Shown here in pieces: positions 1 through 50,200 of a DNA stretch of 64,000 bases; positions within the stretch are counted from its first letter, which is position 1; every line of letters begins with the position of its first letter. The DNA is from a virus. Location: IMG/VR virus record IMGVR_UViG_3300025889_000087, positions 32,110 to 96,109 of that record. One strand, written 5' to 3'. The translations under genes were made by a program, and so were the position numbers. The notes below the pieces were generated by a model. That model was not told where the DNA came from and did no database searches. It was given only the letters and a program-made list of their open reading frames with translations.

Positions 1-348
1 GAAGACTTTGACGGCAATTCCGTCGTCGAAACCGCCGCCATACGCAACCATAGGCCATTCTATGCCGTCGCGATCAACGTGCGTTGCGTGAAATAGGCGA
101 TCTCGCAAGCCGGGGTTATCGAGGGTATAGCCCCAACCACCATATCCTTGTGTGCCGTCTTCGTTGATTCCATGCCGTTCCATCAACACGGCATTATCCC
201 TGTCCGCTTCGTCGGTGAACGCGCTCAATTCATCCAAAAGAGCGCGGCGTTCAGCCAACGCCTGCGTGTATTCGGGTCCAATTTCACGAATTGAATTGAG
301 ATCCAGTGGGGCTTTCACCACCAACCACGCGGTGTCGAAAGCGTTCAT
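1..348 (-). CDS. Tagged array protein, 3' end runs off the window; paralog of 809..1708
   Basis: Not in the ORF track. Manual translation from ATG 348 gives MNAFDTAWLVVKAPLDLNSIREIG...LFHATHVDRDGIEWPMVAYGGG. The ATG overlaps the stop of 345..812 (ATGA), and 27 nt (301-327) are identical to 1661-1687. Confidence 0.85.
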   Translation of the reverse strand, partial: MNAFDTAWLVVKAPLDLNSIREIGPEYTQALAERRALLDELSAFTDEADRDNAVLMERHGINEDGTQGYGGWGYTLDNPGLRDRLFHATHVDRDGIEWPMVAYGGGFDDGIAVKVF

Positions 349-812
349 TCTTCCATCACCCCAATGTCCGAAGTGCCGTGCTTTTCACGCATCCTTTGAG
401 CAAATCCTTCACCAAGATCCGTTTTCATTGACCTGACCGGATCAAAAAAGGTCTTCCCTTGAGATTGAGCCAAACGCACGATGAGATGCAAAAGGGCTTC
501 CTGATACCCTTTTCCTCTATACCCACTCTTTGTCGATATTGTATAGGGATAGATGCCGTGGTCGAAATATGGCGCAATAATGTGGTGAGCCCTCCAATCG
601 TCGTCTTCATCCATGATGTAGGCCGAACCGACGCCCGCTCCATCCTCACTCAAGCGGGCAAAAGCAGGCAATCGTTCCTGTGTTTCAGGGTCGATGAAGT
701 CCGCTTCCAAGCGTTGATAGGGGTAGCCCCCGATTTCCTCGGTTGTTTCACGGATTGAGTCAAAGTCAAGCGGGGCCTTCATCAAAGACCAAGCGCGGTC
801 GAAGGCGGTCAT
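345..812 (-). CDS. Tagged array protein, GNAT-family acetyltransferase-like
   Basis: N-terminus MTAFDRAWSLMKAP; acetyl-CoA motif A-like ISTKSGYRGKGYQEALL. Confidence 0.75.
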   Translation of the reverse strand: MTAFDRAWSLMKAPLDFDSIRETTEEIGGYPYQRLEADFIDPETQERLPAFARLSEDGAGVGSAYIMDEDDDWRAHHIIAPYFDHGIYPYTISTKSGYRGKGYQEALLHLIVRLAQSQGKTFFDPVRSMKTDLGEGFAQRMREKHGTSDIGVMEE

Positions 813-1708
813 TGTTGATCCCCCATCCGCTCACGAAGACCGCGCCACCAAATCTCATGCAATCGGTCGCGGTAGTTCGGGTCGTTTTGGTTCGCCGCCC
901 ACATGCGCTGCGCGTCAAAGGACTGGTTGGGGTCGGGCCTCAAATCCACCTCTAAATCGTCGGGAAGGTAATTGTCGTTGAGTTCGCTTAGGAAATCGCG
1001 CATGGCCGTGGCTATGCCTTTGCGTTGATAAGAAGGTTTAACGTCGAGCATTGAACCTTCCGAGTATTCATAGAGCATGTCGCTCGCCGTCTCGTAATTG
1101 GCTTCTATTTCATCCAATTCGTGGTCCGTGTATTCTTCCGGGTTGTGTTCTGCGCGAATCCGAGCATCGAATGGGTTTTCAGACAAGCCCATTCTTTCGG
1201 TGATGATGCCTTCAAGGATTGAGCCTCGGTCTCCATGACCTGCGGCAGTGACAGAAAGCGAACCTACCCGATTTGGTAAGTAGTCACCATAAAACCACCT
1301 GTCGCCAATCTGCGCACCATGCCCCCTACCAATTTCCTTTATGGGGCCTTGTCCTCCGCCGACATATGCTGCCACTTCGGCACCTCCGCCCCCCAGTCCG
1401 TAGGTAATCATTGGAAACTTGTTGCCCTTTTTGTCGTAGTGGTTTGCACGGTAAATCGAGCCGTGGTGTCGGGCCATCCCGATGATGTGCTCCAACGAAG
1501 AAAGTTCTTCGATGAGTTTGACCCAATCTTGATAGGGGATGTCTCCCATGATGCCGTGAGTCGTCGTCTTATAATCTTCCTCAAGCAAACTCCGAAGCAT
1601 GTTCGCTCTTTCCGTCATAGCCCAAAAGTAGTCATCGCCCAGTCTTTGCACTGAGTCAAGATCCAGTGGGGCTTTCACCACCAACCATGCACAATCAAAC
1701 GGGCTCAT
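809..1708 (-). CDS. Tagged array protein with C-terminal GNAT acetyltransferase domain
   Basis: Start reassigned to MSPFDCAWLVVKAP (ATG 1708); motif A LDVKPSYQRKGIATAM followed by PDPNQSFDAQRMW. Confidence 0.8.
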   Translation of the reverse strand: MSPFDCAWLVVKAPLDLDSVQRLGDDYFWAMTERANMLRSLLEEDYKTTTHGIMGDIPYQDWVKLIEELSSLEHIIGMARHHGSIYRANHYDKKGNKFPMITYGLGGGGAEVAAYVGGGQGPIKEIGRGHGAQIGDRWFYGDYLPNRVGSLSVTAAGHGDRGSILEGIITERMGLSENPFDARIRAEHNPEEYTDHELDEIEANYETASDMLYEYSEGSMLDVKPSYQRKGIATAMRDFLSELNDNYLPDDLEVDLRPDPNQSFDAQRMWAANQNDPNYRDRLHEIWWRGLRERMGDQQ

Positions 1709-2129
1709 CGTCGTCCCCCGTTTTTCGTCGCATTTGCTCCTGCAATTCCTCACTAAACCACGGGTTTTCGTATTGCATCGCGTTGGGCCAGTCGATGTCT
1801 TCGGGCGGAATTGGCTCGTTCGACACAAACGACGCCATCTCAGGGTCAATGCCGAGTATTCGTGCGAGAATGGGGGAATGGTCTATACCCGGCCTCATGC
1901 GGGGGTCGCCTTCATCACGCCAAAACGGGAGGGTGATGATTTGTCGGCTTTGTGGCCGCGTCATACCGATCCACTTCGCCGCCCCGTCTTCGTCACGAGA
2001 AGCGTAGACTTCACCAAAATTGGACTTGATTCCTTGGGCTGCAATAGGACCAAGGTTTTCCATAGGCGTGGCGTGGTAATACCACGGTGCCTTGACGAGC
2101 GACCACGCTCGGTCGAAGGCATCCGCCAT
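1695..2129 (-). CDS. Tagged array protein, ADP-ribosyltransferase fold (His-type, Tpt1/KptA- or PARP-like)
   Basis: MADAFDRAWSLVKAP then YYHATPMENLGPIAAQGIK...VYAS, with a C-terminal IPPEDI. This pattern is typical of H-type ART domains. Confidence 0.7.
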   Translation of the reverse strand: MADAFDRAWSLVKAPWYYHATPMENLGPIAAQGIKSNFGEVYASRDEDGAAKWIGMTRPQSRQIITLPFWRDEGDPRMRPGIDHSPILARILGIDPEMASFVSNEPIPPEDIDWPNAMQYENPWFSEELQEQMRRKTGDDDEPV

Positions 2130-2147
2130 GGTTCATGCACCCCTCGC

Positions 2148-2951
2148 TCATCGTTTGAACATTCCGCGACCAAACATGAAGTCCCATATTTCAGGGTCAA
2201 TGTTGTGTTGCTGACCTGTGGGTATGGGCCTTCCTTCTTCGCCGCCTGCATAAAACAGGCCCCATTGTTGAGGTGGACCAGTATAGCCGTCAATGTTGGT
2301 TGCCCCTAAATCGGAAAGCACACGTCTCCGCAATTCGGGGTCACGCAATATCGTTCGCTGCATCATCATGGCCGCGCTTGGTGGTTTGAACACCTGAGAA
2401 GCGTATTCAGGTATAATCACCCAATCTTTGCCATGTTCTTGAAGACGCTGACCCCATTTTTCAACATCTCCTTCGCCAAAAAGGCCACGATAGAGAGAAA
2501 AGGCCAAATTGTTCAATTCATCTTTCTCGCTCCCATCCCAATTTATGTGGCTCGTTCCGTCATTTCCCATTTGCATAGGAGGGACATAGACCCGCTCGGG
2601 GTTCACTTCAGGCAACGTGAACGAATGGACATCACGGGTATTCCCTCCATGCTGTTCTTTGTCCCATCCCGCGTATTGCTGCGCCGTCAGCAATTGCGGC
2701 GAAAAGAAGCGACCGCTTGGATCGCCCGCACGGTATAGGGTCTGCCCAGTGAACGGGAAAAATGGTGCTAAATTGCTCGGCTCATTGACTTGAGCCATGA
2801 TGAGTTCGGGCATGATGTCTTCCAAAAAATCATGGTCTTCGCCCGCCCAATCCCACGGCTGCCTGCGTCGGTGTGCGTCAAAAATCCTGAAGGCCTCGTC
2901 CTCGGTGATGGGGGCTTTGATGATCGCCCATGCGGCGTCGAAGGGCGTCAC
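2148..2951 (-). CDS. Tagged array protein, putative ADP-ribosyltransferase-like domain
   Basis: GTG 2951 (GTGA overlap), VTPFDAAWAIIKAP; LYRAG...FFSPQLLTAQQYAG resembles the ART strand 1/strand 2/A-x-x-Y-A pattern. Confidence 0.65.
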   Translation of the reverse strand: MTPFDAAWAIIKAPITEDEAFRIFDAHRRRQPWDWAGEDHDFLEDIMPELIMAQVNEPSNLAPFFPFTGQTLYRAGDPSGRFFSPQLLTAQQYAGWDKEQHGGNTRDVHSFTLPEVNPERVYVPPMQMGNDGTSHINWDGSEKDELNNLAFSLYRGLFGEGDVEKWGQRLQEHGKDWVIIPEYASQVFKPPSAAMMMQRTILRDPELRRRVLSDLGATNIDGYTGPPQQWGLFYAGGEEGRPIPTGQQHNIDPEIWDFMFGRGMFKR

Positions 2952-3706
2952 CACCAATCATCCTCCGTGATTCCCACATCGTTAGCGGCCTGTCGCTGCC
3001 ATTCCTCCAAATTGTCCCATTCGCCGTGCATTTCAATGGGTGACGCATCTTCATGGGAAAAAGATTCCACGAAATCATCGTATTCGGACGTTCTATACAC
3101 ATCATCGGTTGCCTGATGTTGAGGCGGATTGCGGTTAAACCGCTCAAGCGATTCATTGTTCCGGTAGGCAATCAAACGCTGCAAAGCCTCCCGTGCGTGT
3201 TTTTCCCGTTGGTCGGGTGTGAAAGCGGCTCCCGAAGTCACTTCAGGGTCAAGCCGCGCCTTTCCTTCATTGATGAACTCCTGAAGCAATTCAATAACGC
3301 GGTCGTGCGGAAGCCTCACGCTCCCCACATCGTTCCAATCTTCCAACATAACACCAAAGCCGGGACTGAAAGGGTCTTCACGCAACATTCCCGGTTCGTC
3401 TTCTCCATATTCGCTTGGGTCAATGACGCTGATGCTCGGAATTGTCCTCCGCATTGGCGGTGCTTCAATACCGCGTGAGTCAATCAATTGTCTGTTGGCG
3501 GGGTTCATGTATCGCGCAGCCGAACCGAAGAGCGCGTATTGGAGGGCGGCGTCGAGATTGTTTGAAAAATACCGTGGGTCGTCCCTCGCGTCCCCGCCGC
3601 TGAACAACATTTCGTCGTCTTCAATTGTCCTAACGAGGCCCCTGTCGCCCGCATAAACGTCAATGGGGGCTTTGATGATCGCCCAAGCAGCGTCGAAGGC
3701 GGTCAT
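2948..3706 (-). CDS. Tagged array protein, ART-like family (paralog of 3703..4362 and 6307..6981)
   Basis: MTAFDAAWAIIKAP; LFSGGDARDDPRYFSNNLDAALQYALFGS. Confidence 0.7.
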   Translation of the reverse strand: MTAFDAAWAIIKAPIDVYAGDRGLVRTIEDDEMLFSGGDARDDPRYFSNNLDAALQYALFGSAARYMNPANRQLIDSRGIEAPPMRRTIPSISVIDPSEYGEDEPGMLREDPFSPGFGVMLEDWNDVGSVRLPHDRVIELLQEFINEGKARLDPEVTSGAAFTPDQREKHAREALQRLIAYRNNESLERFNRNPPQHQATDDVYRTSEYDDFVESFSHEDASPIEMHGEWDNLEEWQRQAANDVGITEDDWW

Positions 3707-4362
3707 CGCAATACCCCAAGCCGTTGGTGCCCTGCCCCCTGTTCAAGCATTTCAAGCAAAAGCCGGTAAAGGTGGGCCTGTTGGTCTATGAACCCGCCGA
3801 AATCATATCCTCCCGTAGCATTCCGGTCAAACTGTTTTGCGCCCTCAACCAATTCCCCCGTATATGGATTTGAGAATGTAGGTTGCGTTCCCCACGCCAA
3901 CCTCCCTTGCCCGTCCGCCAACTCGCGCAACAAGATTTGCAGCATTTCATTGTCGGGTAATGTGCGGTAGCGGACCCGTGGGGGTTGGCTCAATGATGGG
4001 GCATAAAAACCACTATTCCCCCTCCGAACGGTCTTGTCCGCATCAATACCAATCCAATTCATGTTCTCGGGTTCTCCCGTTAAAAACTCAGGATCGTGAA
4101 TGAGGCGGACTGTTTCGTCCGTGGGGGTAGCAATCCGCAATTCAGGTATTCCTGTCCGGTATTTCCTCTCCCCTCCACTTCCTGAGCCAAATACGGCGTA
4201 GGCAAGAGCCGTTGATTTGTCGGGTGTCCAATACCGCGTATCTTGTCCCCCGCGTTTATTGCCCTGATAAAGCGTGTCGCCTTCTTCGCCGGACAAAACA
4301 CGAAAACCCGGCATGACGTAGGGCATTTTTACGATGTCCCAAGCGGCGTCGAAGGCGGTCAT
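3703..4362 (-). CDS. Tagged array protein, ART-like family
   Basis: ATG 4362 after a GAGGT SD; MTAFDAAWDIVKMP; LYQGNKRGGQDTRYWTPDKSTALAYAVFGS. Confidence 0.7.
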   Translation of the reverse strand: MTAFDAAWDIVKMPYVMPGFRVLSGEEGDTLYQGNKRGGQDTRYWTPDKSTALAYAVFGSGSGGERKYRTGIPELRIATPTDETVRLIHDPEFLTGEPENMNWIGIDADKTVRRGNSGFYAPSLSQPPRVRYRTLPDNEMLQILLRELADGQGRLAWGTQPTFSNPYTGELVEGAKQFDRNATGGYDFGGFIDQQAHLYRLLLEMLEQGAGHQRLGVLR

Positions 4363-4363
4363 A

Positions 4364-4576
4364 TCATACCTCACCTACCCAATCCCAATTTGCATCAAGG
4401 AATCGCTGTTCTATTCTATCCTTTGCCCCATTCTCTCGTTGAACAATAGCCACTTGATGTGTTCCCACCCCATCGGGTATCATATCATACCCCACCAATT
4501 GAACCTGTTCGCCTGTGTGTTTGTTCCTCAGAACTCCCTGCTTGAGCAAAGCCCAAGCGGTGTCGAAGGCGGTCAT
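4364..4576 (-). CDS. Tagged array protein, small hypothetical (70 aa)
   Basis: MTAFDTAWALLKQG; start overlaps the upstream stop. Confidence 0.8.
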   Translation of the reverse strand: MTAFDTAWALLKQGVLRNKHTGEQVQLVGYDMIPDGVGTHQVAIVQRENGAKDRIEQRFLDANWDWVGEV

Positions 4577-5067
4577 AGAAGCCCCCTCCTTCGCAGTTCC
4601 TCCATAATCGCAGGGTGTTCCATGCCCTCAACGAGCATGGCTCCGTATTCGTTTTCCGGTCCCCCCAAGTGAACAAACTCGTCCTGTATTGCTTCGTGGC
4701 CTTCTTCGTGCATGATTGACTCGATGATGCGCCGAATCATTTCATCTTCAGAAAGTCTTCGCCCTCCGAGTTCTTCGTTTCTGTTGCCCGGATCGTCCCA
4801 AGAATGGATAGGATGTGCGAGATTTACGGCTGCGACGTATTTATCGTCCGTGGCGTAAAGATTAGAAAAAGGCCCACGTTCACGTTCTTCCGGCTTTCTG
4901 CTCCGTTCTCTCCATCGAATGTTTGTCTTAGGCCATTTCATCGGAACCCAATTTTGCATCCTGCTATGAAAAGCGGCTTCTCGACTTCTCTCGTTCCCGT
5001 TTTCCAAATCCGCTCCAAAATAGAAGTCGGCCTTCAAAATCGCCCAAGCGGCGTCGAAGGCGGTCAC
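4573..5067 (-). CDS. Tagged array protein, HExxH zinc metallopeptidase-like
   Basis: GTG 5067 (GTGA overlap), VTAFDAAWAILKAD; helix IIESIMHEEGHEAI with a downstream E in ENEYGA. Confidence 0.7.
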   Translation of the reverse strand: MTAFDAAWAILKADFYFGADLENGNERSREAAFHSRMQNWVPMKWPKTNIRWRERSRKPEERERGPFSNLYATDDKYVAAVNLAHPIHSWDDPGNRNEELGGRRLSEDEMIRRIIESIMHEEGHEAIQDEFVHLGGPENEYGAMLVEGMEHPAIMEELRRRGLL

Positions 5068-5693
5068 AACGGCTCCCCCCATTCTTCCCGCAGTTCCTCG
5101 GCTAAACGCTTGGGGCGATTGACGGGCTCAATAGGCACTGGTGGGCGGTCTTCCTCAATGACCGGCCAATAGGTGCCTTCGGGATAGGTGGTGTGGATGT
5201 AGCCGGTGTTAAACGCATTCGTTGGCCGAACCCCTGTTTGTCCCTCCCAAAAGTCCATGCCCTCAAGACTTTGCAGGTTGCTTGGAGCAATCCTTCTCAT
5301 CAGCCCGAGGGCCCCCCGATCGGCGAGAATGGCCGCCAAATCGTAAATGGCGGTCATGTAGCCGCGGTTCCGATAAGGATTCCACGTCGAAGTGCCACCC
5401 GACGAGAACACCTGCGACGGCTCGTGTAGTGGGGCGGCGGGACGGTTGAAGGTTGCTTGAGAGCGGTCAATTTCATTTTGTCCATACGGTCCGGGGCCTC
5501 GGATGGCGACATGCACGTTTTCCCCTATGACCTGAGCCGTCATGGGGTGCTCTTCGCCCGTCACCGGATCCAAGAAGCGGGCCACCGGCTCGGGTGGCGT
5601 TTTCGTTGAACTCCACTTGACGTTTTGCGGATTTACAGAATCCACGATGAGGGGGGCCTTCATGACCGACCAAGCGGTGTCAAATGCCGTCAT
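5064..5693 (-). CDS. Tagged array protein, GNAT acetyltransferase-like
   Basis: MTAFDTAWSVMKAP; TSTWNPYRNRGYMTAIYD and PSNLQSLEGMDFW. Shares F-x-D-P-x-T-x-E-x-x-P with 345..812. Confidence 0.75.
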   Translation of the reverse strand: MTAFDTAWSVMKAPLIVDSVNPQNVKWSSTKTPPEPVARFLDPVTGEEHPMTAQVIGENVHVAIRGPGPYGQNEIDRSQATFNRPAAPLHEPSQVFSSGGTSTWNPYRNRGYMTAIYDLAAILADRGALGLMRRIAPSNLQSLEGMDFWEGQTGVRPTNAFNTGYIHTTYPEGTYWPVIEEDRPPVPIEPVNRPKRLAEELREEWGEPL

Positions 5694-6310
5694 CGCAACA
5701 CCCCAAGCCGCTCCAATTCAAAATAGGTGCGGTCCGGCATATCCCTACCCTCCCTGTATCGGATTTCCTCTCCGTCGGAGAATACCGGAATGACTTCTTC
5801 AAGATGCTGAGGCGCAATCGGACGAACCGACATCGTAGCGCGGTAGCCAATTCCGGGTTGAAAATCGGGGTCTTGCCACACAGGACCCGGCGGGGTAATA
5901 CGCGATCCAATAATGGACATGGGGCGTCCATGCCACGCATCGGAAAAGAATTGGGCCATCAGTAGCGGGTGAAGGTCGTTGTTGAAAGGGCCTTTCTGTT
6001 GCCATTGTCTTAGACTGACGGGTTGCCTTTGGTGACGAAACGTATAGACGGCTTCGTCATGGGGCCATTCGGGATATTTGAACGCCTCGCCCCTTTCTGC
6101 CTGTTGTATCGCTTCCATCACGGCTTTGCTATCAGGGGCAGGGCGACCGTAATGCGGCAAAACCGGACGTGGGACAATTCCTTCTTCAAGAACCTGATCG
6201 ACAAAATCAGAAGGAATGGCGCGGTAGGCACGGAATTGGTCTTTTCCGCCCCATGAGGGCGTGACTTCGACCGCCTTCACGACCGACCAAGCGGTGTCGA
6301 AAGCGTTCAC
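5690..6310 (-). CDS. Tagged array protein, putative ART-fold (Arg in strand 1)
   Basis: VNAFDTAWSVVKA (GTG 6310 or ATG 6313); AYRAIPSDFVDQVLEEGIVP and C-terminal IAPQHL parallel the pattern in 1695..2129. Confidence 0.6.
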   Translation of the reverse strand: MNAFDTAWSVVKAVEVTPSWGGKDQFRAYRAIPSDFVDQVLEEGIVPRPVLPHYGRPAPDSKAVMEAIQQAERGEAFKYPEWPHDEAVYTFRHQRQPVSLRQWQQKGPFNNDLHPLLMAQFFSDAWHGRPMSIIGSRITPPGPVWQDPDFQPGIGYRATMSVRPIAPQHLEEVIPVFSDGEEIRYREGRDMPDRTYFELERLGVLR

Positions 6311-6981
6311 CATACGTCCAACCCCCACTGCCGATTGCGATAGGTGCGCGAAGTGCCTGCGTTGTCTTGGCCCCCAGTGTCCAAACGCCCCGGTTCCTCC
6401 AAACCTTCAAGTCGTTCTGCCGCCCCCATAAGATGTTCCCGTATTTGCTGCTCCGTCGCGTTTTGCGCCGATGTGTCACCCACATAGACCCCTTCGTCGG
6501 TCATCCGCCGTTGGATTCCGTGTTCACCGAGAAGACGGATCATGTCGTAGATGTGGTTGCTCAATTCCGCTTTTGGCATAGGCGTGTAATTGATGGGGGC
6601 CTGATCGACGGCAAAATCATAATCGGGGTTCAGCGGCTCGCTCATCACTGCTCCCCTTTCCCCGGTCCATGTTTCAGGGTCTCCAAATAGAACATTTTGC
6701 GGAGAACGGTCAAAGTCCAAAGGGCCGGGGTCCTCAGCGACCATGACTTGCGGAATGGTTTGACGCATGGTCTGCATCCCCGTGCCCGAACCGAATAGAG
6801 CATAGCGCAGTGCCTCATCGAAATTGCGCGTCCAATAGCGCGGATCGTCGCCCTGATGCCCACCGGAATAGAGAGGGCCCTTGATGGACTCACGGTCGTC
6901 AAGGAACGGTTCGTAGTCGTCGTCTATGACGAACCACGGGGCCTTGACGACCGACCAAGCGTCGTCAAACGCTCGGCTCAT
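6307..6981 (-). CDS. Tagged array protein, ART-like family
   Basis: ATG 6981, MSRAFDDAWSVVKAP; LYSGGHQGDDPRYWTRNFDEALRYALFGS. Confidence 0.7.
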   Translation of the reverse strand: MSRAFDDAWSVVKAPWFVIDDDYEPFLDDRESIKGPLYSGGHQGDDPRYWTRNFDEALRYALFGSGTGMQTMRQTIPQVMVAEDPGPLDFDRSPQNVLFGDPETWTGERGAVMSEPLNPDYDFAVDQAPINYTPMPKAELSNHIYDMIRLLGEHGIQRRMTDEGVYVGDTSAQNATEQQIREHLMGAAERLEGLEEPGRLDTGGQDNAGTSRTYRNRQWGLDVW

Positions 6982-7020
6982 GTGATTCCGCACGAACCGC
7001 GGAGAGAAAAACGTGGCGGT
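6979..7020 (-). promoter_or_regulatory. Putative leaderless promoter, copy 1 of a duplicated upstream element
   Basis: Minus strand ACCGCCACGTTTTTCTCTCCGCGGTTCGTGCGGAATCACATG, a near-copy of 7488-7529. Confidence 0.55.
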
Positions 7021-7490
7021 CAGAACTCGGCTCCTTCCAAGTCTTCCAAAACACGATGCGGGCTTCCCTTGGGGGCGGCTTGCTTACGGGCCCTTGGGCG
7101 AGGCATACGAGATACGGAACCGTAGCCCCCGTAATCCTCGGAAGATGGCTTCTCCCTCTTTGACTTAAAACCGTGGTCGAAGAATGGACCCTCATAATCT
7201 CCCCTTGCGCTCAAATCAAGACCACTTGTCAAACCTGTGTGGGGGCCATGTTCCGAATCGCCCAATCCGAGTCTTTGGCGGGCGAAATCTCGCTGATAGT
7301 CTGCGGCAAGCAGCGCGTAAATGAGAGCATTCGGATCGACTGTCCCCAAATTGTGCGCACCCGAACCCATGTTGTTGGCGAGGTTCATACGTTCCTCGGT
7401 ATCAGGGTGAACCTGTGAGTTAATGCGGTTGAATGCCTGATGGTTGGGGTTCGCCTTAACGATAGACCAAGCCGACTCAAACGCTCCCAT
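7020..7490 (-). CDS. Tagged array protein, hypothetical with basic C-terminal region
   Basis: ATG 7490, MGAFESAWSIVKAN. Confidence 0.8.
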   Translation of the reverse strand: MGAFESAWSIVKANPNHQAFNRINSQVHPDTEERMNLANNMGSGAHNLGTVDPNALIYALLAADYQRDFARQRLGLGDSEHGPHTGLTSGLDLSARGDYEGPFFDHGFKSKREKPSSEDYGGYGSVSRMPRPRARKQAAPKGSPHRVLEDLEGAEF

Positions 7491-7626
7491 GTGATTCCGC
7501 ACGAATCACAGGGATAAAAACGTCGCGGTGAGTCAGGGCCCTCACCAACCATCCCCCCATATTGCCTTCCCATCGACGGTGACTTGCTTCGTCCCATACC
7601 GAGAATGCGGCATCGAAGGCATCCAC
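7477..7626 (-). pseudogene. Degenerate or micro member of the tagged array
   Basis: GTG 7626, VDAFDAAFSVW. Preceded by GGGGTATTGC, as at the 3706 junction, and by a T-run about 30 nt upstream. Lacks the conserved W and K. Confidence 0.35.
7488..7529 (-). promoter_or_regulatory. Putative leaderless TATA promoter with an 8-bp inverted repeat
   Basis: TTTTTAT lies 24-30 nt upstream of ATG 7490; palindrome TGTGATTC-N5-GAATCACA at 7490-7510. Confidence 0.6.
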
Positions 7627-7772
7627 GCAATACCCCATGAGCCGCTCCTTGAAAAAAAAATCCGGCGGGAATGGGACTCCGGATCGGCCAAAAGACGGGA
7701 CTCCTAACACCCCTGTGAGTCCTAACAAAAAAAGTCTCAGATTTTTTCCGTGTAGCGTCTGTGGTTAGGGAG

Positions 7773-7872
7773 GCCGCGCAGCAAAAAAAAAAAATGTGCC
7801 CGCAGGCAAGCCTGCGGGCCATTTTGTTTTTTTTCGCTACACTGCGCGGCAGGCCCGACCGCAGGTCGGGCC
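7773..7872. repeat. Two adjacent inverted repeats (hairpins)
   Basis: GCCCGCAGGC-AA-GCCTGCGGGC (7798-7819), flanked by an A12 tract and a T-rich arm, with outer arms GCCGCGCAG/CTGCGCGGC. Second hairpin GGCCCGACC-GCA-GGTCGGGCC (7852-7872). Confidence 0.9.
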
Positions 7873-8381
7873 GCACGCTCGGCGTGGCGGGCTCGGCGGC
7901 ATAGCCGCATAGCGGCGCAGTGCTGCGCTTTTGCTGCGTTGGCTCGGCCACCCGTGGTGCTTTGTGGTGGGTGGCGGTGGCCCGCCCATCCCCGCAATAG
8001 GCTCGCCGTCCCCCGTTTAGCACGCCTCACCCGCCCTCGCTCGGCCCGATCCTGCTCTCGACGGGCCATCCATGGGCTCAAATCGCTGCACGGTGGGCCT
8101 TTTGCGGCTATGTGGCCCGCTCGCCCACCCTGTGGCTCGTGCTCCCTCACCAGTGGCCCGCCCTCAGCCGAGCCTGCCCCGACGCCCGGTCAGGCCGCTT
8201 TTGCTGCTACACGGTGCCTCCATGGGCGCAAAACGGGCATATGCCGGTATGTGGCCCGCCCCACCCCCTTCTGCGCAGATTTCCGCGCTCCGAGCCGTCG
8301 CCGCGCCACACCGCAGGGGTGCCGGACGGGCAGACTTTCGGTCACGGCCACGCAGAATGGGTGCGGTGAGCCCGTCGAGGC

Positions 8382-8434
8382 CATGTGCGGGGCATGAGTC
8401 CATGCTCATGGCCCATGCCCATGCCATGCTCATG
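8382..8434. repeat. Cluster of eight CATG tetramers
   Basis: CATG at 8382, 8393, 8401, 8407, 8414, 8420, 8425 and 8431. Confidence 0.9.
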
Positions 8435-8441
8435 GGGTCGG

Positions 8442-8551
8442 CTTTCTTCACTTTCTTCACTTTATTCATTCATATTTTTCTCTCCCCTTCCCCTCTATAC
8501 CCCTTTTCAGGGGTGTATCTCATAGGTGATGGATGATGAAAGTGATGAAAG
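8442..8551. repeat. Inverted sets of tandem 9-mers around a pyrimidine-rich spacer
   Basis: CTTTCTTCA x2 plus CTTTATTCA (8442-8468) face TGATGAAAG x2 (8534-8551); central ACCCCT-TTTC-AGGGGT (8499-8514). Confidence 0.75.
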
Positions 8552-8625
8552 ATTGAGGTTCAGTGGGCCGTTCACGGTAGCCCACCCAAAAACCGCTACG
8601 CTGCACCACGAAACGCTGCGCTTGA

Positions 8626-8649
8626 TTCATATACACCCCATGGTGTAGG
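8626..8649 (+). promoter_or_regulatory. Conserved viral promoter/operator, copy 1
   Basis: TTCATATAC-ACCCCAT-GGTGTAG, followed by a GGAGG SD and ATG 8670. Confidence 0.8.
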
Positions 8650-8669
8650 AAGGGCGACCGGAGGCCGAT

Positions 8670-13862
<5,193 letters not shown>

Positions 13863-13878
13863 GCAGGAGAGGGCGTGG

Positions 13879-14103
13879 ATGGGACGCTTCTCAAGCATCT
13901 TCGGCGGTGGCGATCGGCCCCTGCTCCCTATCACGGTGCAGGACCTTGAGTCGCTCCTTGAGCGCAGGAAGGGCCGACCTGACTCCCCGGTTATCCTCAC
14001 TGTTGGTGGCGAACGGCACGTTTTGCTGCGATTGGATGACTACGAACGCATCATGCGTGTGGTCGGCTCGATAGAAGCACTGGTCGCCGCCATGGACGAC
14101 TGA
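13879..14103 (+). CDS. Small protein resembling the Phd/YefM antitoxin DNA-binding fold
   Basis: PVILTVGGERHVLLRLDDYERI; SD-like GGAGAGG upstream. Confidence 0.5.
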   Translation: MGRFSSIFGGGDRPLLPITVQDLESLLERRKGRPDSPVILTVGGERHVLLRLDDYERIMRVVGSIEALVAAMDD

Positions 14104-14247
14104 CCTTTTGCGGATATGGCTCCAATCTCGGCTCGGCTGAGCCGTTCATCACGAACAACGGAGGGTTTAAGTGTGCATACGTTCTCGGGGCATGGACAAC
14201 CATGCCGTCGGGCGAACGGGGCACTGACCCTGCACCACAACGAGGGG

Positions 14248-14272
14248 TTCATATACCCCACACGGTGTGGAC
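14248..14272 (+). promoter_or_regulatory. Conserved viral promoter/operator, copy 2 (leaderless to ATG 14279)
   Basis: TTCATATAC-CCCACAC-GGTGTGGA. Confidence 0.8.
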
Positions 14273-14278
14273 TGGCTG

Positions 14279-15964
14279 ATGCCCCGAGCAGCAACAACCA
14301 CCGATGCCCCGCAGCAGACCGCCCACATGGTTGTCGTCGGCCACTTCACTGGCCTGACCGACACCCATGTTGAGGTCACGTTCCCCGCGCTGAGCGGGGA
14401 CCGCACCCTCTCCATTCAGCGCACGGATCTCCGTGCCTCCGGCTCAACCGGCGTTGCCGTCCCCGGCTCTCCGGCCCGCGCCGTGTCCTTCGCCTGCGCC
14501 GTCTGCCCCACCTGCAACAACGCGCCCGCCGACCGCCGCTCCGTGTCCTTCAGCACGGACAACGACGGAAACGAGGTTCGCACCGTCACCAAGTGCGACG
14601 GCTGCGACGGCAAGGGCCACATCAGCGACTTCGGCACTGACACTCCCGTCATCGACCCCGACCACGCCGACATCGTGGACCACCTGACAAACGGCAACCT
14701 GCCCCCCGGCGCTGAGCCCGTGTTCCGCTCCATGCAATCCGGTGGCCGCAGTGGCCGCATGGACCAGTGGGACGTTGAAATCACGGCCCGCCCCCTCATG
14801 GCGATGACCCCGAGCGGCGTCCCCGTGCCTGTGTCCCCCCTGATTGTGCAGCACTTCAATGAGGCATACGCCTCCGACGACATGCCCCACGGCGCACCCA
14901 TCGGACGCACCAAGACCGGCACCTACGCCACCGTGCAGCACCGCACCGCCCTTCAGCCCTTCATCGACCACTGCGAGTCTGCGGGCCTCTCCTACACGGC
15001 ATGGGGCGCGAACCGCGGCCAAGACGCCTATGTGGACATCATGCTCGCGGAGAACGGCACCAAGGAAGAAGTGATTGCGAACCTGAAGGCCCTCTCCCAA
15101 GCGGCGGGCAACGGCACCAACACCCACCCAAGCGGTGCCTTCGGCATGAGCGGCCTCCGCGAGAACCCCGACGCCATCATCCGCTTCGGCATCCAAATCC
15201 ACCACACCTTCGACGGTGCGTTCACCGTTCGCGGCATCGCTGAGCGTGTGGCCTGCCTCAACGGCATGGTCGCCACCAACGCCGAGGACCTGCTCTCCGT
15301 GCAGCACAAGAAGGGCGTCATGGACCGCATCAACTGGTCCGGCATGGCCCCGCTGCTCGCAGACGCCGCGCTCCGCCTTTACACGGAGATGCAGAACGTC
15401 GTGCGCATGAACCTGCTCCCCCTCGCCCCCGAGGACTGGGAGGCTTTGCTCGTGCTCGCTGAGCAGCGCGGCATCCTCTCGTGGCCCTCGCTCGGTCAGC
15501 AGAACCAACTGACCGGCGGTCGCGTCTTCCGCGCCGCTGCTCAGGGATGGCAGAACCCCGCGCTCCCATGGGTCGCCGTGGGCGGCAACGACGGCGATGT
15601 CGTCGGCAGCCTCAACCACGCGCTCAACGTCTTCACGGGCATCATCACCCATCAGGTCGAGGCCCACGACGCCCACGGTCGCGTGACCGGCGGGAAGGCG
15701 ATTTCCGTGGCCCGCACGCAGGACATGCTTCAGCGCGTCCACATGCTGATGCGCGAGGTTCAGGACAACGCCGAAGCCGCCGCCAGTGCTGCCGGTGCCT
15801 CCGACGACGTGGGCTCGTGGGTCTTCCACCACGGCATCCCCATGCTCGCCAACGTGGCCCACGAGGACGCTGACGAGGGGCACATCCTCCCCCGCATCAC
15901 CGTGAACCCCGGTCAGGACACCGAGCGCAGCGTGCAACTGCTCTCCGCCATCCCCACGGCCTGA
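14279..15964 (+). CDS. DUF932/DUF945-like phage protein with N-terminal Zn finger
   Basis: IHHTFDGAFTVRGIAERVACLNGMV matches the DUF932 pattern; CPTC...CDGC near the N-terminus. Start placed by promoter spacing. Confidence 0.65.
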   Translation: MPRAATTTDAPQQTAHMVVVGHFTGLTDTHVEVTFPALSGDRTLSIQRTDLRASGSTGVAVPGSPARAVSFACAVCPTCNNAPADRRSVSFSTDNDGNEVRTVTKCDGCDGKGHISDFGTDTPVIDPDHADIVDHLTNGNLPPGAEPVFRSMQSGGRSGRMDQWDVEITARPLMAMTPSGVPVPVSPLIVQHFNEAYASDDMPHGAPIGRTKTGTYATVQHRTALQPFIDHCESAGLSYTAWGANRGQDAYVDIMLAENGTKEEVIANLKALSQAAGNGTNTHPSGAFGMSGLRENPDAIIRFGIQIHHTFDGAFTVRGIAERVACLNGMVATNAEDLLSVQHKKGVMDRINWSGMAPLLADAALRLYTEMQNVVRMNLLPLAPEDWEALLVLAEQRGILSWPSLGQQNQLTGGRVFRAAAQGWQNPALPWVAVGGNDGDVVGSLNHALNVFTGIITHQVEAHDAHGRVTGGKAISVARTQDMLQRVHMLMREVQDNAEAAASAAGASDDVGSWVFHHGIPMLANVAHEDADEGHILPRITVNPGQDTERSVQLLSAIPTA

Positions 15965-16001
15965 GCCCCACGATACGGCACGAACCACGGAGGACGGAAG
16001 C

Positions 16002-45359: not shown

Positions 45360-45635
45360 TCAGCGGTCGCGGGCAACACGCCCGCCGCCTGCTCCAAGGT
45401 CCCGTCGCATCTTGGGACGGGCACCGCTGCCCGAACCCCTCACCTTTGACCGCGAATAACGAGCGCGTGTGCGCTTTTCCTTGTTCTTCCTCGACACTGA
45501 ATACGCTCGCCGCTTCTGTTGTCGTTCAGCACGACCTTCTGAGGGGTCACGGGTGTAGCCTCGGAACTCACCCTTTACGACAGACCAACCGATCCCAAAG
45601 GCTCGCTCTTCAGGCGAGGGCGTGCGTTCCTCCAC
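45360..45635 (-). CDS. Small, very basic protein with tag-like N-terminus
   Basis: RAFGIGWSVVKG followed by an Arg/Lys-rich body. Confidence 0.7.
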   Translation of the reverse strand: MEERTPSPEERAFGIGWSVVKGEFRGYTRDPSEGRAERQQKRRAYSVSRKNKEKRTRARYSRSKVRGSGSGARPKMRRDLGAGGGRVARDR

Positions 45636-47220: not shown

Positions 47221-50200
47221 TCAACGCACCTCGTAGAAAACGCTCTTGGAATGACCCACGGGGTCCATCCTTTTTGATGCTACCCGCAGGTTATCACCGT
47301 CACCGATAGCCACCACGTTGTTGGCCGTCAGGACAATTGTTGTTGCCGTCACCGACGACACAAACCCAACCAATTCGTGGTCGTCGTTCAGAACGGCGTC
47401 GTATTGCGAATAGCGCAGCGTGGCGTCCGTCCCCGCCACGTTCAGCGTCGTGGTTGTGCCCGCACCCACCGCGCCGTTCTTCGTCACGCCCGTTTGGCCG
47501 CCACGCACACCGATGCTCCCCAATTGATGAGTGGTGGGCTCTCCGCGGTGCCTTGCGCCAATCAAGAGGCGCGTGCCGTTCACGAACCGCGTCAGGACGC
47601 GCTGAGCCGACACCACGCGGATGGGGGCGTTGAGCGAGATGGAGAACTGCTCCTTAGTGCGCGTCGGGTCTTCGTCCTGCACGGCAGCAGTGGACGACTG
47701 AAGGTCTGCGATAAGCCCCTCAATGCCCTTTTCGTATTGCCCAATGATGAGATCGCTCGTCCCTGCGGCATAGTCGTGGCGCACTTCAAAAACGGCGAAC
47801 TCACCGCGGATGTTCTCAATTGAGAAATCCACGTTGATGATTTCGCCGGGGCGAATGTCGGTTGATTGCAGCAGCCCTTCAACACGAATGAGGGAAGAGC
47901 CTTGTGTCGAACGGCGGAGAAGGCCCTTAGCGAGTCGCAAGGCGACACTGCGCTCGCGCACACCCGGAACGCTGACCTTCATAGTGCGCTCGACACCCTC
48001 TTCGCCACCGGGGCCGCCCATCTCACGCATCTTCTCCACGTCGCGCACGTCGCCACGGACGATTTCATTTTGAGCCACCATGTCGCCCTCCACAATGACG
48101 TGGTTCGCCATCTCAAGCATGGTGCTCACTGTAATGTTGCGAGGCCCGCTGCTCGTTCCCACGCGCCGCTCTTTGCCGGTAAAGACTTCGGGAGAATAGA
48201 TGAGAAGGCCGTTTTCGCTCAATGACAATTGGTGTCCGTCAATACGCGACAGGTCCCGCAGAATGTCCATGACGCCAATGCCTCGCCCTTTGCGGCTGAT
48301 GAAGGATCCACTGTGCATGAGCATGTCACGCAGCGAGGGGTGGCTGAAAAGGAAGGCCGTGCGTGCTGCGGTCAGGCTCATGTTTGACGACGAATAATCC
48401 GCATACACGCCCGTGTCTGTCGTGGCTTGTTCGTGCTGAATTGTGAAGATAGTGAGGTCTGCGCCGGGGATAGCAGAAGCCAAATCGTTGAGCAGCATGA
48501 GCGCGGCGTCACTGGTGCGAACACCGACACCCATGTGCTGCCCGAAGCGCACCGCGCCAATCCCCATTCCCGCCGCGCTCAGCGTTTCTGCGTTCAGGTT
48601 GCGGAAGAGCACTTCCGTATCATCATCACCGCGAACTCCCGCAACCCTCCAACGCTTCTGCCCTTCATCAATCAGGTATGGTGGTGCAAAGGTGCTGATG
48701 AGTCTTCCGTCTACATACGGCGTAAGCAGACCGCCTGTTCCCGGTGCGCGACGATAGGACACAAAACCACCATTCTGCCCGTCGCTTAGCACGAATCGCT
48801 GAGGACTGAGCATGATGAAGTCTGATGGGTTGTAGTGTCCGATGCCGCGGTATGCCATGTTTGTCGCATAATCTGTGGAGTCGTCACTGCTTGTCGCATC
48901 CCACTTGTCGCTCAGCAACATGCCGACGCTCACCGCATTGTCCACCAAGGACGGAAGAACGACGAGGGGGACGGTGGGTGGTGTGAGGTTGGCGACAGTC
49001 GCCACTTCCAAAGCAGTGGCCGAACCCTGCCGAACTTCATAACCCGCCAAATCTGCAATAGAACTGCACTGCCCCGTCGCTGAAAGGATGGTGAACTTCG
49101 TCTCCGTGCGCGACGAATAGCGCACTGAGCCAGTCAAGCCGATAATGACGAGGTAGCCGCTCTTGGAGAAAGCCGTAGCGTCCTCAACGATAAGTGCGGC
49201 TCCTGTGTCGAACTTGATGGTGGTTCGGGGACCAAGTGCCGCGAGAGCATAGTCCGGTTGCTTCCTCACCGCTTCAACGTCCTTATCGCGCCGGAAATAG
49301 GGGTCGAGGGCGAAAGTGTCGTCGGTGGTATAGACCGTTTCCGTTTGAGAGATGGTCTCGCCACCGCCGGGGTGTGTGCTTTGCGAATAGCGAGCGTCCA
49401 CGAAAGCGTTCAGCACGCCGTTGCGATCGCGACGGGCCGCATCAGACTTGAAGTGCTGAAGCATGTTGGCCGAGGGAATCAAGTGCCACACGACATCGCG
49501 CTCATTTGCGTCCGGCCATTCAATGGTCGGAGCGGCGTCATAGGGAGATGAAATACCCTGAATGTCCCCTCCCTGCGAGTTGGTCGAGGATTCAAACATC
49601 CCATACCGCTTGTCACGGGTGAATGGTTGGTCCTTCGACCCTGCTTCGGTGATGGTTGCGTATGGTCCAAGCAGCCATCCATCCTGATTCATCAGGCTCC
49701 CGTCAGAATTGTTCTCGGAGGTGTAGCCGAACACCTTCAGGGGGCGCACCATGCGCACGATGTAGTCGGCATAACGACGGACTGGCTGCGCGATTTGCGC
49801 CTTTGCAGTGGCGTTTGTCCCACCTTGCCTCGTTCGGAGAAGGTCGCCGTCTTCACGCCGTTCAAGCCACGTTTTGCGCAGAATGAACACACCACCCCAT
49901 GGCGGCAGGTCCGCGGATCCACGCACGGCCCAATGGTCGCGGATGCCCGCCCCATCTGCTTGTTGAATGTCGTCGCTGAAGGGGTTAGAGAGTGCCGAGA
50001 GGTCAGTGTCTTCATTCAGCGTCCATTTGGGCTTAGCCACACGTTGGTTGGGGTTTGATTGGCCGCCATAGGTGTCATTCGGACGACCCGCAGTGGTCGT
50101 AATGCTGCCCTTTGACGCGCCTGTCTTTGTCCACCGTGTCTCCTGAACCCACGACGGCGTGACGGGGAAGATTTGCCCCACCCCAAGGTCAGAATGCAGG

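Follow-up and report, generated by a model that had tools for sequence, protein, structure and literature searches.

A 12-residue N-terminal tag on unrelated proteins of a magrovirus as a candidate signal for the capsid interior

Why should a virus begin a whole row of dissimilar proteins with the same few residues? The question is raised by a 64,000-nt stretch of DNA, hereafter the window, which comprises bases 32110-96109 of one 96,109-bp viral contig (IMG/VR record IMGVR_UViG_3300025889_000087). Gene content identifies the virus as a magrovirus of Marine Group II (MG-II; Poseidoniales) archaea. Window positions 1-7490 hold 13 successive, mostly overlapping minus-strand genes, each starting M-x(1-2)-[A/P]-F-[D/E]-x-A-W-x-h-h-K, in which h stands for a hydrophobic residue. 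An earlier note on this DNA had listed 13 such starts, from 7490 down to 348, and all 13 are open reading frames (ORFs) with this N-terminus, gene 11 beginning at 6310 or 6313. The reading that we favor, with a probability of about 60%, is that the tag is a two-part, virus-specific signal for the capsid interior, made of a docking helix and of a Lys that would be the P1 residue for a Peptidase_S78 (S78) protease.

The tag is not a chance product of base composition. Its back-translated core, TTYGANNNNGCNTGGN9AAR, had 13 matches in the window, on the minus strand only, and none in any of 100 dinucleotide-preserving shuffles of the window (0/100). With a looser protein pattern we found 18 tagged genes genome-wide, all with the tag N-terminal and all on the minus strand, which is also the strand of the genes for the large terminase (TerL), portal, protease and capsid protein, as had been claimed. 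The 18 are made up of an array of 14, two small genes at genome 18.8-19.3 kb, a 431-aa protein and a variant at window 45360-45635. The array does continue past the edge of the window, if only by the rest of gene 1 and one gene with a variant tag (AFSLAWDIVK). The 431-aa protein, T13101, is encoded immediately upstream of the large terminase; it is basic, rich in Pro and Gln and probably disordered, and it yielded no usable match in the ESM Atlas and no relatives in the locus search. At the other end of the array, a small ORF led by a Shine-Dalgarno sequence (MGYCVDAFDAAFSVWDE..., window 7477-7635, minus strand) has at its N-terminus what looks like a degenerate tag, in which W has become F and K has become D, and reaches into the promoter of the array's first gene. 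It may be the remnant of a former array member.

We then compared tags across viruses. Among the matches listed, 305 unique N-termini gave the logo M(77%)-[T/S/N]-A(86%)/P-F(100%)-D(79%)/E-x-A(97%)-W(97%)-x-[L/V/I]-[L/V]-K(99%), these percentages being too high to the extent that A, F, D, A, W and K were prescribed by the scan pattern in 176 cases; tags outside the strict pattern looked like those inside it. Information content collapsed directly after the tag Lys, where A (26%), M (19%), E (13%), G (10%) and S (8%) were followed by P (27%) or D (17%). The motif began at residue 3 in most of the 311 tagged ORFs listed and was internal in about five. Codon use within the tags was mixed: Phe was encoded by TTT and TTC 8 and 10 times, Lys by AAA and AAG 6 and 12 times, all four Ala codons occurred, and Val, Ile, Leu and Met codons were interspersed, while upstream sequences differed from gene to gene. 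Since synonymous positions vary freely and the residues are fixed, the codons argue that selection acts on the tag as protein. The earlier note had named conservation at the DNA level alone as an outcome that would speak against a targeting tag, and the free variation of synonymous sites is the opposite of that outcome.

The same note had proposed that the tag is an amphipathic helix, and both calculation and modeling point that way. When the tag is drawn as a helical wheel, F4, A7, W8 and h11 fall on the same face and the two variable positions point away from it. The hydrophobic moment of the tags was 0.46-0.51, compared with 0.43 for the 95th percentile of shuffled sequences, and in AlphaFold models from two cargo families the tag is predicted to be a helix, residues 3-11, ahead of two different folds. 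The tag does not resemble a Sec or Tat signal peptide, in that its 10 conserved residues include Asp and Lys and it contains neither a hydrophobic run nor an RR pair.

What follows the tag is highly diverse. About 290 tagged proteins, among the matches listed, fell into 151 BLAST clusters, 99 of them singletons, and Pfam matches were obtained for 9 of 129 cluster representatives. Most cargo of this genome had no Pfam match, and a PHROGs search with the 18 tagged proteins likewise gave almost nothing. In an all-against-all BLAST of the array proteins, strong links were confined to T32448 with T33808 (genes 1 and 3) and to T35806, T36462 and T39078 (genes 6, 7 and 12). The statement that the cargo falls into unrelated classes is therefore borne out here and across relatives; the types we recognized were GNAT and ADP-ribosyltransferase (ART)-like enzymes, a HExxH protein, zinc ribbons and basic disordered proteins. 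The single HExxH peptidase-like cargo that had been reported is T37167 (gene 9), in whose family the motif is conserved.

Structure prediction supported one enzyme class well and the other weakly. In the AlphaFold model of T32912 (gene 2) the tag helix is followed by a GNAT fold that aligned from about residue 18, that is, after the tag. All of the best 50 rows of a VIA-align search (50/50) were GNAT-fold proteins, with Z of 5.8-7.6 over about 90-120 aligned residues, and the top Foldseek rows were also GNAT, at E > 0.02. The Pfam thresholds for GNAT were not reached (Acetyltransf_1, 16.8 bits against a cut-off of 20.7; Acetyltransf_7, 13-15 against 27). Proteins T32912, T32448, T33808 and T37793 form one predicted GNAT-fold family, a well-supported assignment, so that the three GNAT-like proteins proposed earlier become a single family with four members in this array. 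The claim of about six ART-like proteins did not hold up, as we found one family of three (T35806, T36462 and T39078) whose ART-like nature is weakly supported. In the model of T35806 the helix (3-11) leads through a linker modeled with low confidence (12-21) into an alpha/beta domain; its best structural matches were weak, with KptA/Tpt1 at Z 5.2 (root-mean-square deviation 3.0, 80 aa) and Arr at Z 5.0, where the usual noise level is Z 7-8. Foldseek found no significant match for it in PDB or BFVD (E >= 0.18). An ESM Atlas match of the family to ART-PolyVal scored 0.84 and is a lead only, and a search of the three proteins for a catalytic triad (R-S-E or H-Y-E) found no catalytic motif. A homologue search with T35806 returned only close full-length orthologues from marine viruses, and no untagged cellular relatives. 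Because the tag helix precedes two unlike folds and 151 cargo clusters, the tag is a detachable module and not an integral part of a shared domain, which was another of the outcomes that the earlier note had singled out as incompatible with its proposal.

To place the tag in a lineage we searched viruses and hosts, as the earlier note had recommended. The strict DNA pattern was carried by more than 117 IMG/VR stretches, a minimum, in arrays of up to 13. The 311 tagged ORFs listed included 67 loci with at least two tags, 27 with at least four and 12 with at least seven, and within a locus nearly all listed tags shared one strand. Many tag-bearing contigs also held a near relative of this virus's protease and capsid protein. 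Five large tag-bearing records had a capsid protein 66-84% identical to the one here, with 16, 2, 3, 3 and 16 tags; including this genome, tags lay on the capsid-gene strand in 6/6 genomes (18, 16, 16, 3, 3 and 2 tags), and a reversed-pattern control gave 0 matches in the five relatives. Among 185,579 prokaryote species genomes the tag DNA pattern produced 42 single matches, approximately the estimated chance level, and one contig with eight. This sole array-bearing contig was a 106-kb Poseidoniales single-cell contig that encodes a capsid protein 84% identical to that of our virus. No arrays were present in 150 other Poseidoniales genomes, in which the six scattered matches inspected were out of frame or belonged to other proteins, and use of the tag by the host was rejected on these two scans. 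Nor was the tag found in the 89 kb of halovirus HVTV-1 that were searched, and a phage DNA search with the array sequence found nothing. With arrays in relatives and none in the 150 host genomes or in HVTV-1, these surveys mark the tag as a hallmark of this virus lineage and not a host signal. We found no description of it in the literature, magrovirus papers included.

A tag that ends in an invariant Lys draws attention to the maturation protease of the virus. The S78 protease assignment rests on a match to PF04586 (37.3 bits against a cut-off of 21, E = 3.8e-9, residues 18-171) and on a PHROG head maturation protease match (E = 1.7e-19); His68 and Ser126 were invariant in 31 relatives. The HK97 S78 protease cleaves the capsid protein at K103/S104 (PMC10275583), in agreement with the statement in the earlier note that it cuts after Lys. 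An alignment of 31 protease-scaffold proteins from these viruses contained invariant h-h-K motifs, FILK17, LLK173, YVIK315, NVIK334 and EI(Q/V)K411. LLK173 lies exactly at the junction of protease and scaffold, YVIK315 and NVIK334 stand as islands where the Pro/Gly-rich linker of the scaffold varies elsewhere, and EI(Q/V)K411 precedes the C-terminal helix-turn-helix. In 128 capsid-protein homologues (31-90% identity) an insert of variable length was followed by a conserved h-x-K37/A-D-x-P, the slash marking the candidate cleavage site, with K at position 37 in 96/128 and R in 16/128; the HVTV-1 capsid protein has MSK/AD at this site. The pattern fits a protease preference for hydrophobic-x-Lys, and given these scaffold and capsid sites the invariant Lys of the tag would be P1, like the Glu of the capsid-targeting sequence (CTS) of phage T4. 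We also considered whether the N-termini of the capsid protein and of the protease might themselves be copies of the tag. Both were rejected, as the capsid protein has a different spacing (AW-x8-K) and only its h-x-K/AD end is alike, and the spacing in the protease likewise differs.

If h-h-K marked a cleavage site, it might be scarce within the cargo itself. It was the most depleted h-h-X motif there, with 24 observed against 39.4 expected (0.61), and the most enriched one (1.44) in non-tagged proteins of at most 300 aa from the same loci; for the mirror motif K-h-h the values were 1.40 in cargo and 0.96 in other proteins. We regard the depletion as suggestive.

The portal offered another view of where a tagged protein may go. 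Residues ~495-591 of the portal of this virus have a homologue in other magroviruses that stands alone as a basic protein of ~95 aa, and whose gene directly follows that of a shorter portal ending near residue 466. At these split loci the tail gene opens with an intact tag in 6/6 cases (MTAFDKAWKVVK followed by R, and similar). In five genomes, this one and four others, the tail is fused to the portal C-terminus; F-D-x-A-W is then lost in 5/5, and h-h-K before R is kept at the junction in 4/5 (LVK/R, ILK/R, LFK/R and MFK/R). Fused and split forms each occur in several lineages. The C-termini of tailed-phage portals project into the capsid lumen. Because the split forms are tagged, most fused forms keep only the h-h-K half, and portal C-termini are luminal, it appears that the tail domain, which in some viruses is tethered within the head, depends on the tag wherever it is made as a free protein, and the comparison would tie one tagged protein to the capsid lumen. 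Other changes of gene architecture followed a similar course. In fused two-cargo proteins of relatives the internal tag keeps LLK, IIK or LIK and loses F and W. A DUF6321 domain, which here lies at the C-terminal end of a 411-aa protein that has no tag, shares 71-75% identity with small proteins that carry the tag elsewhere, and a GP88-like protein that is untagged here is 29% identical, over the full length, to a relative with a tag elsewhere. From the fused and split tails and these further cases, tags appear to be gained and lost together with changes in gene architecture.

Together these observations suggest how the tag might work. Residues 3-11 would form an amphipathic helix whose Phe4, Ala7, Trp8 and second hydrophobic residue dock onto a procapsid part encoded by the virus. 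The receptor might be the scaffold part of the protease-scaffold protein, for which T4 is a precedent, the inner face of the capsid protein, for which encapsulins are one, or, because of the portal-tail result, the portal crown. The h-h-Lys would provide P3-P1 of a site for the HK97-type prohead protease, so that after assembly the tag would be cut behind Lys12 and the cargo, now free in the head, would leave with the DNA at the next infection. A procapsid tag cut after its Lys was also the earlier note's proposal, and the modularity of the tag, selection at the protein level, the S78 protease and the portal-tail comparison all speak in its favor. Several points weigh against it. We infer all four of its steps, namely docking, cleavage after the Lys, presence in the virion and injection. 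The residue after the Lys is loosely defined, as would not usually be expected where cleavage is strict. With each cluster counted once, by a single representative, the h-h-K depletion in cargo shrank to 0.75 (P = 0.16), against 1.42 in the other proteins. The portal-tail argument concerns one cargo family, with roughly three to four independent lineages per state, and the tag could bind the portal only, which would offer 12 sites. HVTV-1 shares the capsid and protease families yet has no tag in the part searched, so that a capsid of this type does not by itself entail the tag. Finally, the array seems to be its own transcription unit, with TATA-like boxes, beside a divergent replication module, so that its expression may be early rather than late.

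An address could also lead elsewhere. The tag might dock its cargo to a hub in the infected cell that has no part in packaging, such as a host complex modified by the GNAT and ART-like proteins, the viral thermosome or a compartment made by the virus. Docking between proteins is classically mediated by short amphipathic helices that present an F-x3-W-x2-h face, as in p53-MDM2, and the tag has such a face; moreover, the array adjoins a viral group II chaperonin gene (Table 1) and stands with its own promoters beside the replication module. We nevertheless consider a hub of this kind unlikely, as no host protein in the genomes searched uses the motif and the thermosome gene is on the opposite strand to the tags in 5/5 relatives. 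The loss of the docking residues upon portal fusion is better fitted by a tag that leads to portal or capsid, and a hub would leave the invariant terminal Lys and the retained h-h-K unexplained. That same Lys, the h-h-K islands in known protease substrates and the scarcity of h-h-K in cargo would suit a pro-peptide or stability signal, which would keep cargo inactive or control its turnover, be cut off by a protease, either the viral S78 enzyme or one of the host, and play no part in packaging. Prohead proteases of the S78 type work within the procapsid, as established for HK97, so to be an S78 substrate already implies co-localization; it is also hard to see how 12 residues detached from the fold would inhibit 151 unrelated folds, and the F/A/W face, which is not needed for cleavage alone, is exactly what portal fusion loses. 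We rate this account as more doubtful than a cellular hub.

Two further accounts seem to us highly improbable. The hydrophobic moment, which exceeds the 95th percentile of shuffles, would be expected of a helix that places proteins on the host membrane, but the tag has only about nine helical residues and a net charge of about 0 (one Asp, one Lys), both charged residues are invariant, no basic flank is present, the cargo consists of soluble-looking enzymes, and the pattern of portal fusion and splitting would go unexplained. Least credible is that the repeat is kept as nucleic acid, as a junction for recombining cassettes or an element of translation initiation, or that it is simply the N-terminus of one diverged paralogue family. 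The tag coding sequences do form ~36-nt near-repeats at every gene junction, and cargo modules appear shuffled and fused among relatives. Third codon positions and the codons for Ala, Val, Leu and Ile nonetheless vary freely over fixed residues, upstream sequences differ between genes, internal copies decay, and a cargo with at least two folds and 151 clusters is no paralogue family. These readings are largely refuted, and shuffling through the repeat would be a by-product and not the selected function.

A signal for the procapsid interior, which remains the account we prefer, would have counterparts in known systems. The T4 CTS ends at the P1 residue of its prohead protease (Glu) and has also been used to load foreign proteins. 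It resembles the magrovirus tag in being a short N-terminal peptide on unrelated, fast-evolving small proteins at variable loci (IPI-III), and we propose that the tag, too, ends at a prohead protease P1. The T-even internal proteins are diverse, counter host defenses, have only the capsid-targeting sequence as a common feature, and are delivered with the DNA (PMC3012670). The magrovirus tag differs in that it has no sequence similarity to the CTS, in that the protease here is S78 with a proposed Lys P1 instead of gp21, and in its archaeal host, its up to 18 tags per genome, its at least 151 cargo clusters and its many enzyme-like cargos, whose packaging and cleavage we infer. The tag system is thus an analogue of the T4 CTS and not a relative, and the signal would have evolved in magroviruses separately.

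The likeness to HK97 lies in the Peptidase_S78 that both encode and in the cleavage of the HK97 capsid protein after Lys103. In work by Duda et al. in 2013, a short terminal peptide of gp4 reportedly could carry foreign proteins into HK97 proheads. That peptide is a C-terminal part of the protease, no tagged-cargo family is known in HK97, and the magrovirus protease is fused to a scaffold of ~280 aa, with a capsid protein that lacks a delta domain. Encapsulin cargo-loading peptides and the encapsulation peptides of bacterial microcompartments are short terminal peptides or amphipathic helices that, by way of a poorly conserved linker, bring unrelated enzymes into a shell lumen, and the encapsulin shell has the HK97 fold. 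They share with the tag a terminal address on unrelated enzymes, but they are cellular, uncleaved and unrelated to it in sequence, and they export no cargo to another cell. Phage polyvalent proteins and MuF-fused polymorphic toxins deliver ART, acetyltransferase and peptidase-type domains with the virion; they do so as single giant proteins or MuF head-domain fusions, whereas magroviruses have separate small genes, each with a 12-residue address. In staphylococcal phage 80alpha an N-terminal motif of capsid and scaffold proteins is cleaved by the host protease Prp and mimics ribosomal protein L27. This is likewise a common N-terminal motif on unrelated proteins that is removed by one protease, but it depends on mimicry of a host protein and on a host protease, whereas the magrovirus tag was not found in the host genomes searched.

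Table 1. Features of the tagged array and associated loci. Positions are those of the window unless marked as genome positions or as loci of relatives.
Feature	Position	Strand	Remarks
Gene 1, T32448, 287 aa (116 N-terminal codons in window)	1..348	-	tag MNAFDTAWLVVK; GNAT-like family
Gene 2, T32912, 155 aa	345..812	-	tag MTAFDRAWSLMK; predicted GNAT fold cargo
Gene 3, T33808, 299 aa	809..1708	-	tag MSPFDCAWLVVK; gene 1 paralogue (32% identity), GNAT-like
Gene 4, T34226, 144 aa	1695..2129	-	tag MADAFDRAWSLVK
Gene 5, T35051, 267 aa, GTG start	2148..2951	-	tag (M)TPFDAAWAIIK
Gene 6, T35806, 252 aa	2948..3706	-	tag MTAFDAAWAIIK; alpha/beta domain, weak ART-fold matches
Gene 7, T36462, 219 aa	3703..4362	-	tag MTAFDAAWDIVK; ART-like family with genes 6 and 12
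Gene 8, T36676, 70 aa	4364..4576	-	tag MTAFDTAWALLK; small cargo
Gene 9, T37167, 164 aa, GTG start	4573..5067	-	tag (M)TAFDAAWAILK; HExxH motif kept in relatives
Gene 10, T37793, 209 aa	5064..5693	-	tag MTAFDTAWSVMK; clusters with GNAT-like family
Gene 11, T38410, 207 aa	5690..6313	-	tag MVNAFDTAWSVVK
Gene 12, T39078, 224 aa	6307..6981	-	tag MSRAFDDAWSVVK; ART-like family; TATA-like box ~27 nt upstream of ATG
Gene 13, T39590, 156 aa, first gene of array	7020..7490	-	tag MGAFESAWSIVK; TATA-like box ~27 nt upstream of ATG
Outlying variant-tag gene, 91 aa, isoelectric point 11.6	45360..45635	-	..EERAFGIGWSVVKG; tag not at extreme N-terminus, membership uncertain
Promoter/leader copy upstream of gene 13	7488..7532	-	holds TTTTTATC / TTTTTCTC box ~27 nt before ATG
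Second leader copy upstream of gene 12	6979-7023		45-nt direct repeat, 84% identity to 7488-7532; TTTTTATC / TTTTTCTC box
Peptidase_S78 protease fused to scaffold-like extension of ~280 aa	genome 624-1991	-	Pfam PF04586
Portal, 598 aa	genome 7367-9163	-	outside window; Pro/Gly-rich linker and basic tail
Group II chaperonin (Cpn60_TCP1, E = 7e-171)	genome 29404-30975	+	outside window; adjoins array on opposite strand
Two-cargo fusions in relatives	L038:948-1919, L116:8030-9409, L003:12061-13392		internal tag decayed to ..LLKA / ..IIKA / ..LIKM

The duplicated 45-nt leaders of Table 1 suggest archaeal promoters giving leaderless mRNAs. A search for a late promoter motif shared by the array found only this two-copy leader. 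In the earlier note the array was said to lack the early promoter motif. It has TATA-like promoters of its own, so late expression is not established. Between the array and the plus-strand module, window 7780-8500 is a non-coding stretch that could be an origin or a regulatory region; it contains an A-run/hairpin/T-run element at 7783-7834 that resembles a bidirectional terminator, and GC-rich repeats about 130-150 nt apart (GTGGCCCGC..., CCATGGGC.CAAA).

The remainder of the genome agrees with the published description of magroviruses (PMC5434244): a linear genome of ~100 kb, a halovirus-like head module, an archaeal-type replication module, a chaperonin and an association with MG-II. On its minus strand the 96-kb contig encodes TerL, the portal, the S78 protease and, as a 5' part only, an HK97-type capsid protein; its plus strand has genes for PolB, helicases, methyltransferases and an AAA protein that resembles a clamp loader. 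The capsid protein is 31.5% identical to those of haloviruses HVTV-1 and HCTV, the nearest cultured relatives. The thermosome, a core gene of all relatives, is 59% identical to the copy on Poseidoniales single-cell contig C52 and 48% identical to that on viral contig C2, and because of its presence the virus probably belongs to magrovirus group A.

Some features of the contig lie apart from the tagged genes. It is incomplete and has no terminal repeat: one end interrupts the capsid gene (genome 1-610), and the other (window 61031-64000) a gene whose product is at least 988 aa long and includes a Laminin_G_3 domain. Giant ORFs of 2775 and 1850 aa at window 47221-61034 (minus strand), the second with Laminin_G_3 and the first with no family match, presumably encode tail or adhesion proteins. 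Window 8000-16000 is an island of 65-70% GC in a genome of ~57% GC; it encodes a UvrD-like helicase of 1730 aa with long acidic, low-complexity and zinc-ribbon-like parts and is probably a recent acquisition. Between portal and protease, outside the window, lies a gene for an 1183-aa protein with no family match (genome 2017-5568, minus strand), at the position occupied in HVTV-1 by gp115 (L255:4560-8501), a 1313-aa 'zeta toxin' protein; the magrovirus protein may be packaged as a large component of the head.

Magroviruses count among the most abundant viruses of the surface ocean, yet viruses and hosts are uncultured and most of the genes unannotated. We tentatively suggest, at somewhat less than even odds, that they run a programmable effector-injection system, in which one 12-residue label loads any protein and each virus carries its own, rapidly shuffled set of up to about 18 host-modifying enzymes and DNA-associated proteins, which would reach the cell together with the genome. 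New would be the setting in an archaeal virus, the use of a different family of protease, cargo sets that are much larger and richer in enzymes, and the separability of the signal into two parts. If this is true, it would be the first effector-injection system proposed for any archaeal virus, and archaeal viruses, using another protease, would have arrived at T4-style capsid targeting on their own. The label would then be a portable, self-removing 12-residue cargo-loading tag for HK97-fold capsids, of use in protein encapsulation, and a means of reading sets of injected proteins across ocean viromes from sequence. Hundreds of unannotated protein families would thereby gain a location and a likely role, as proteins packaged and injected for host takeover or against host defenses.

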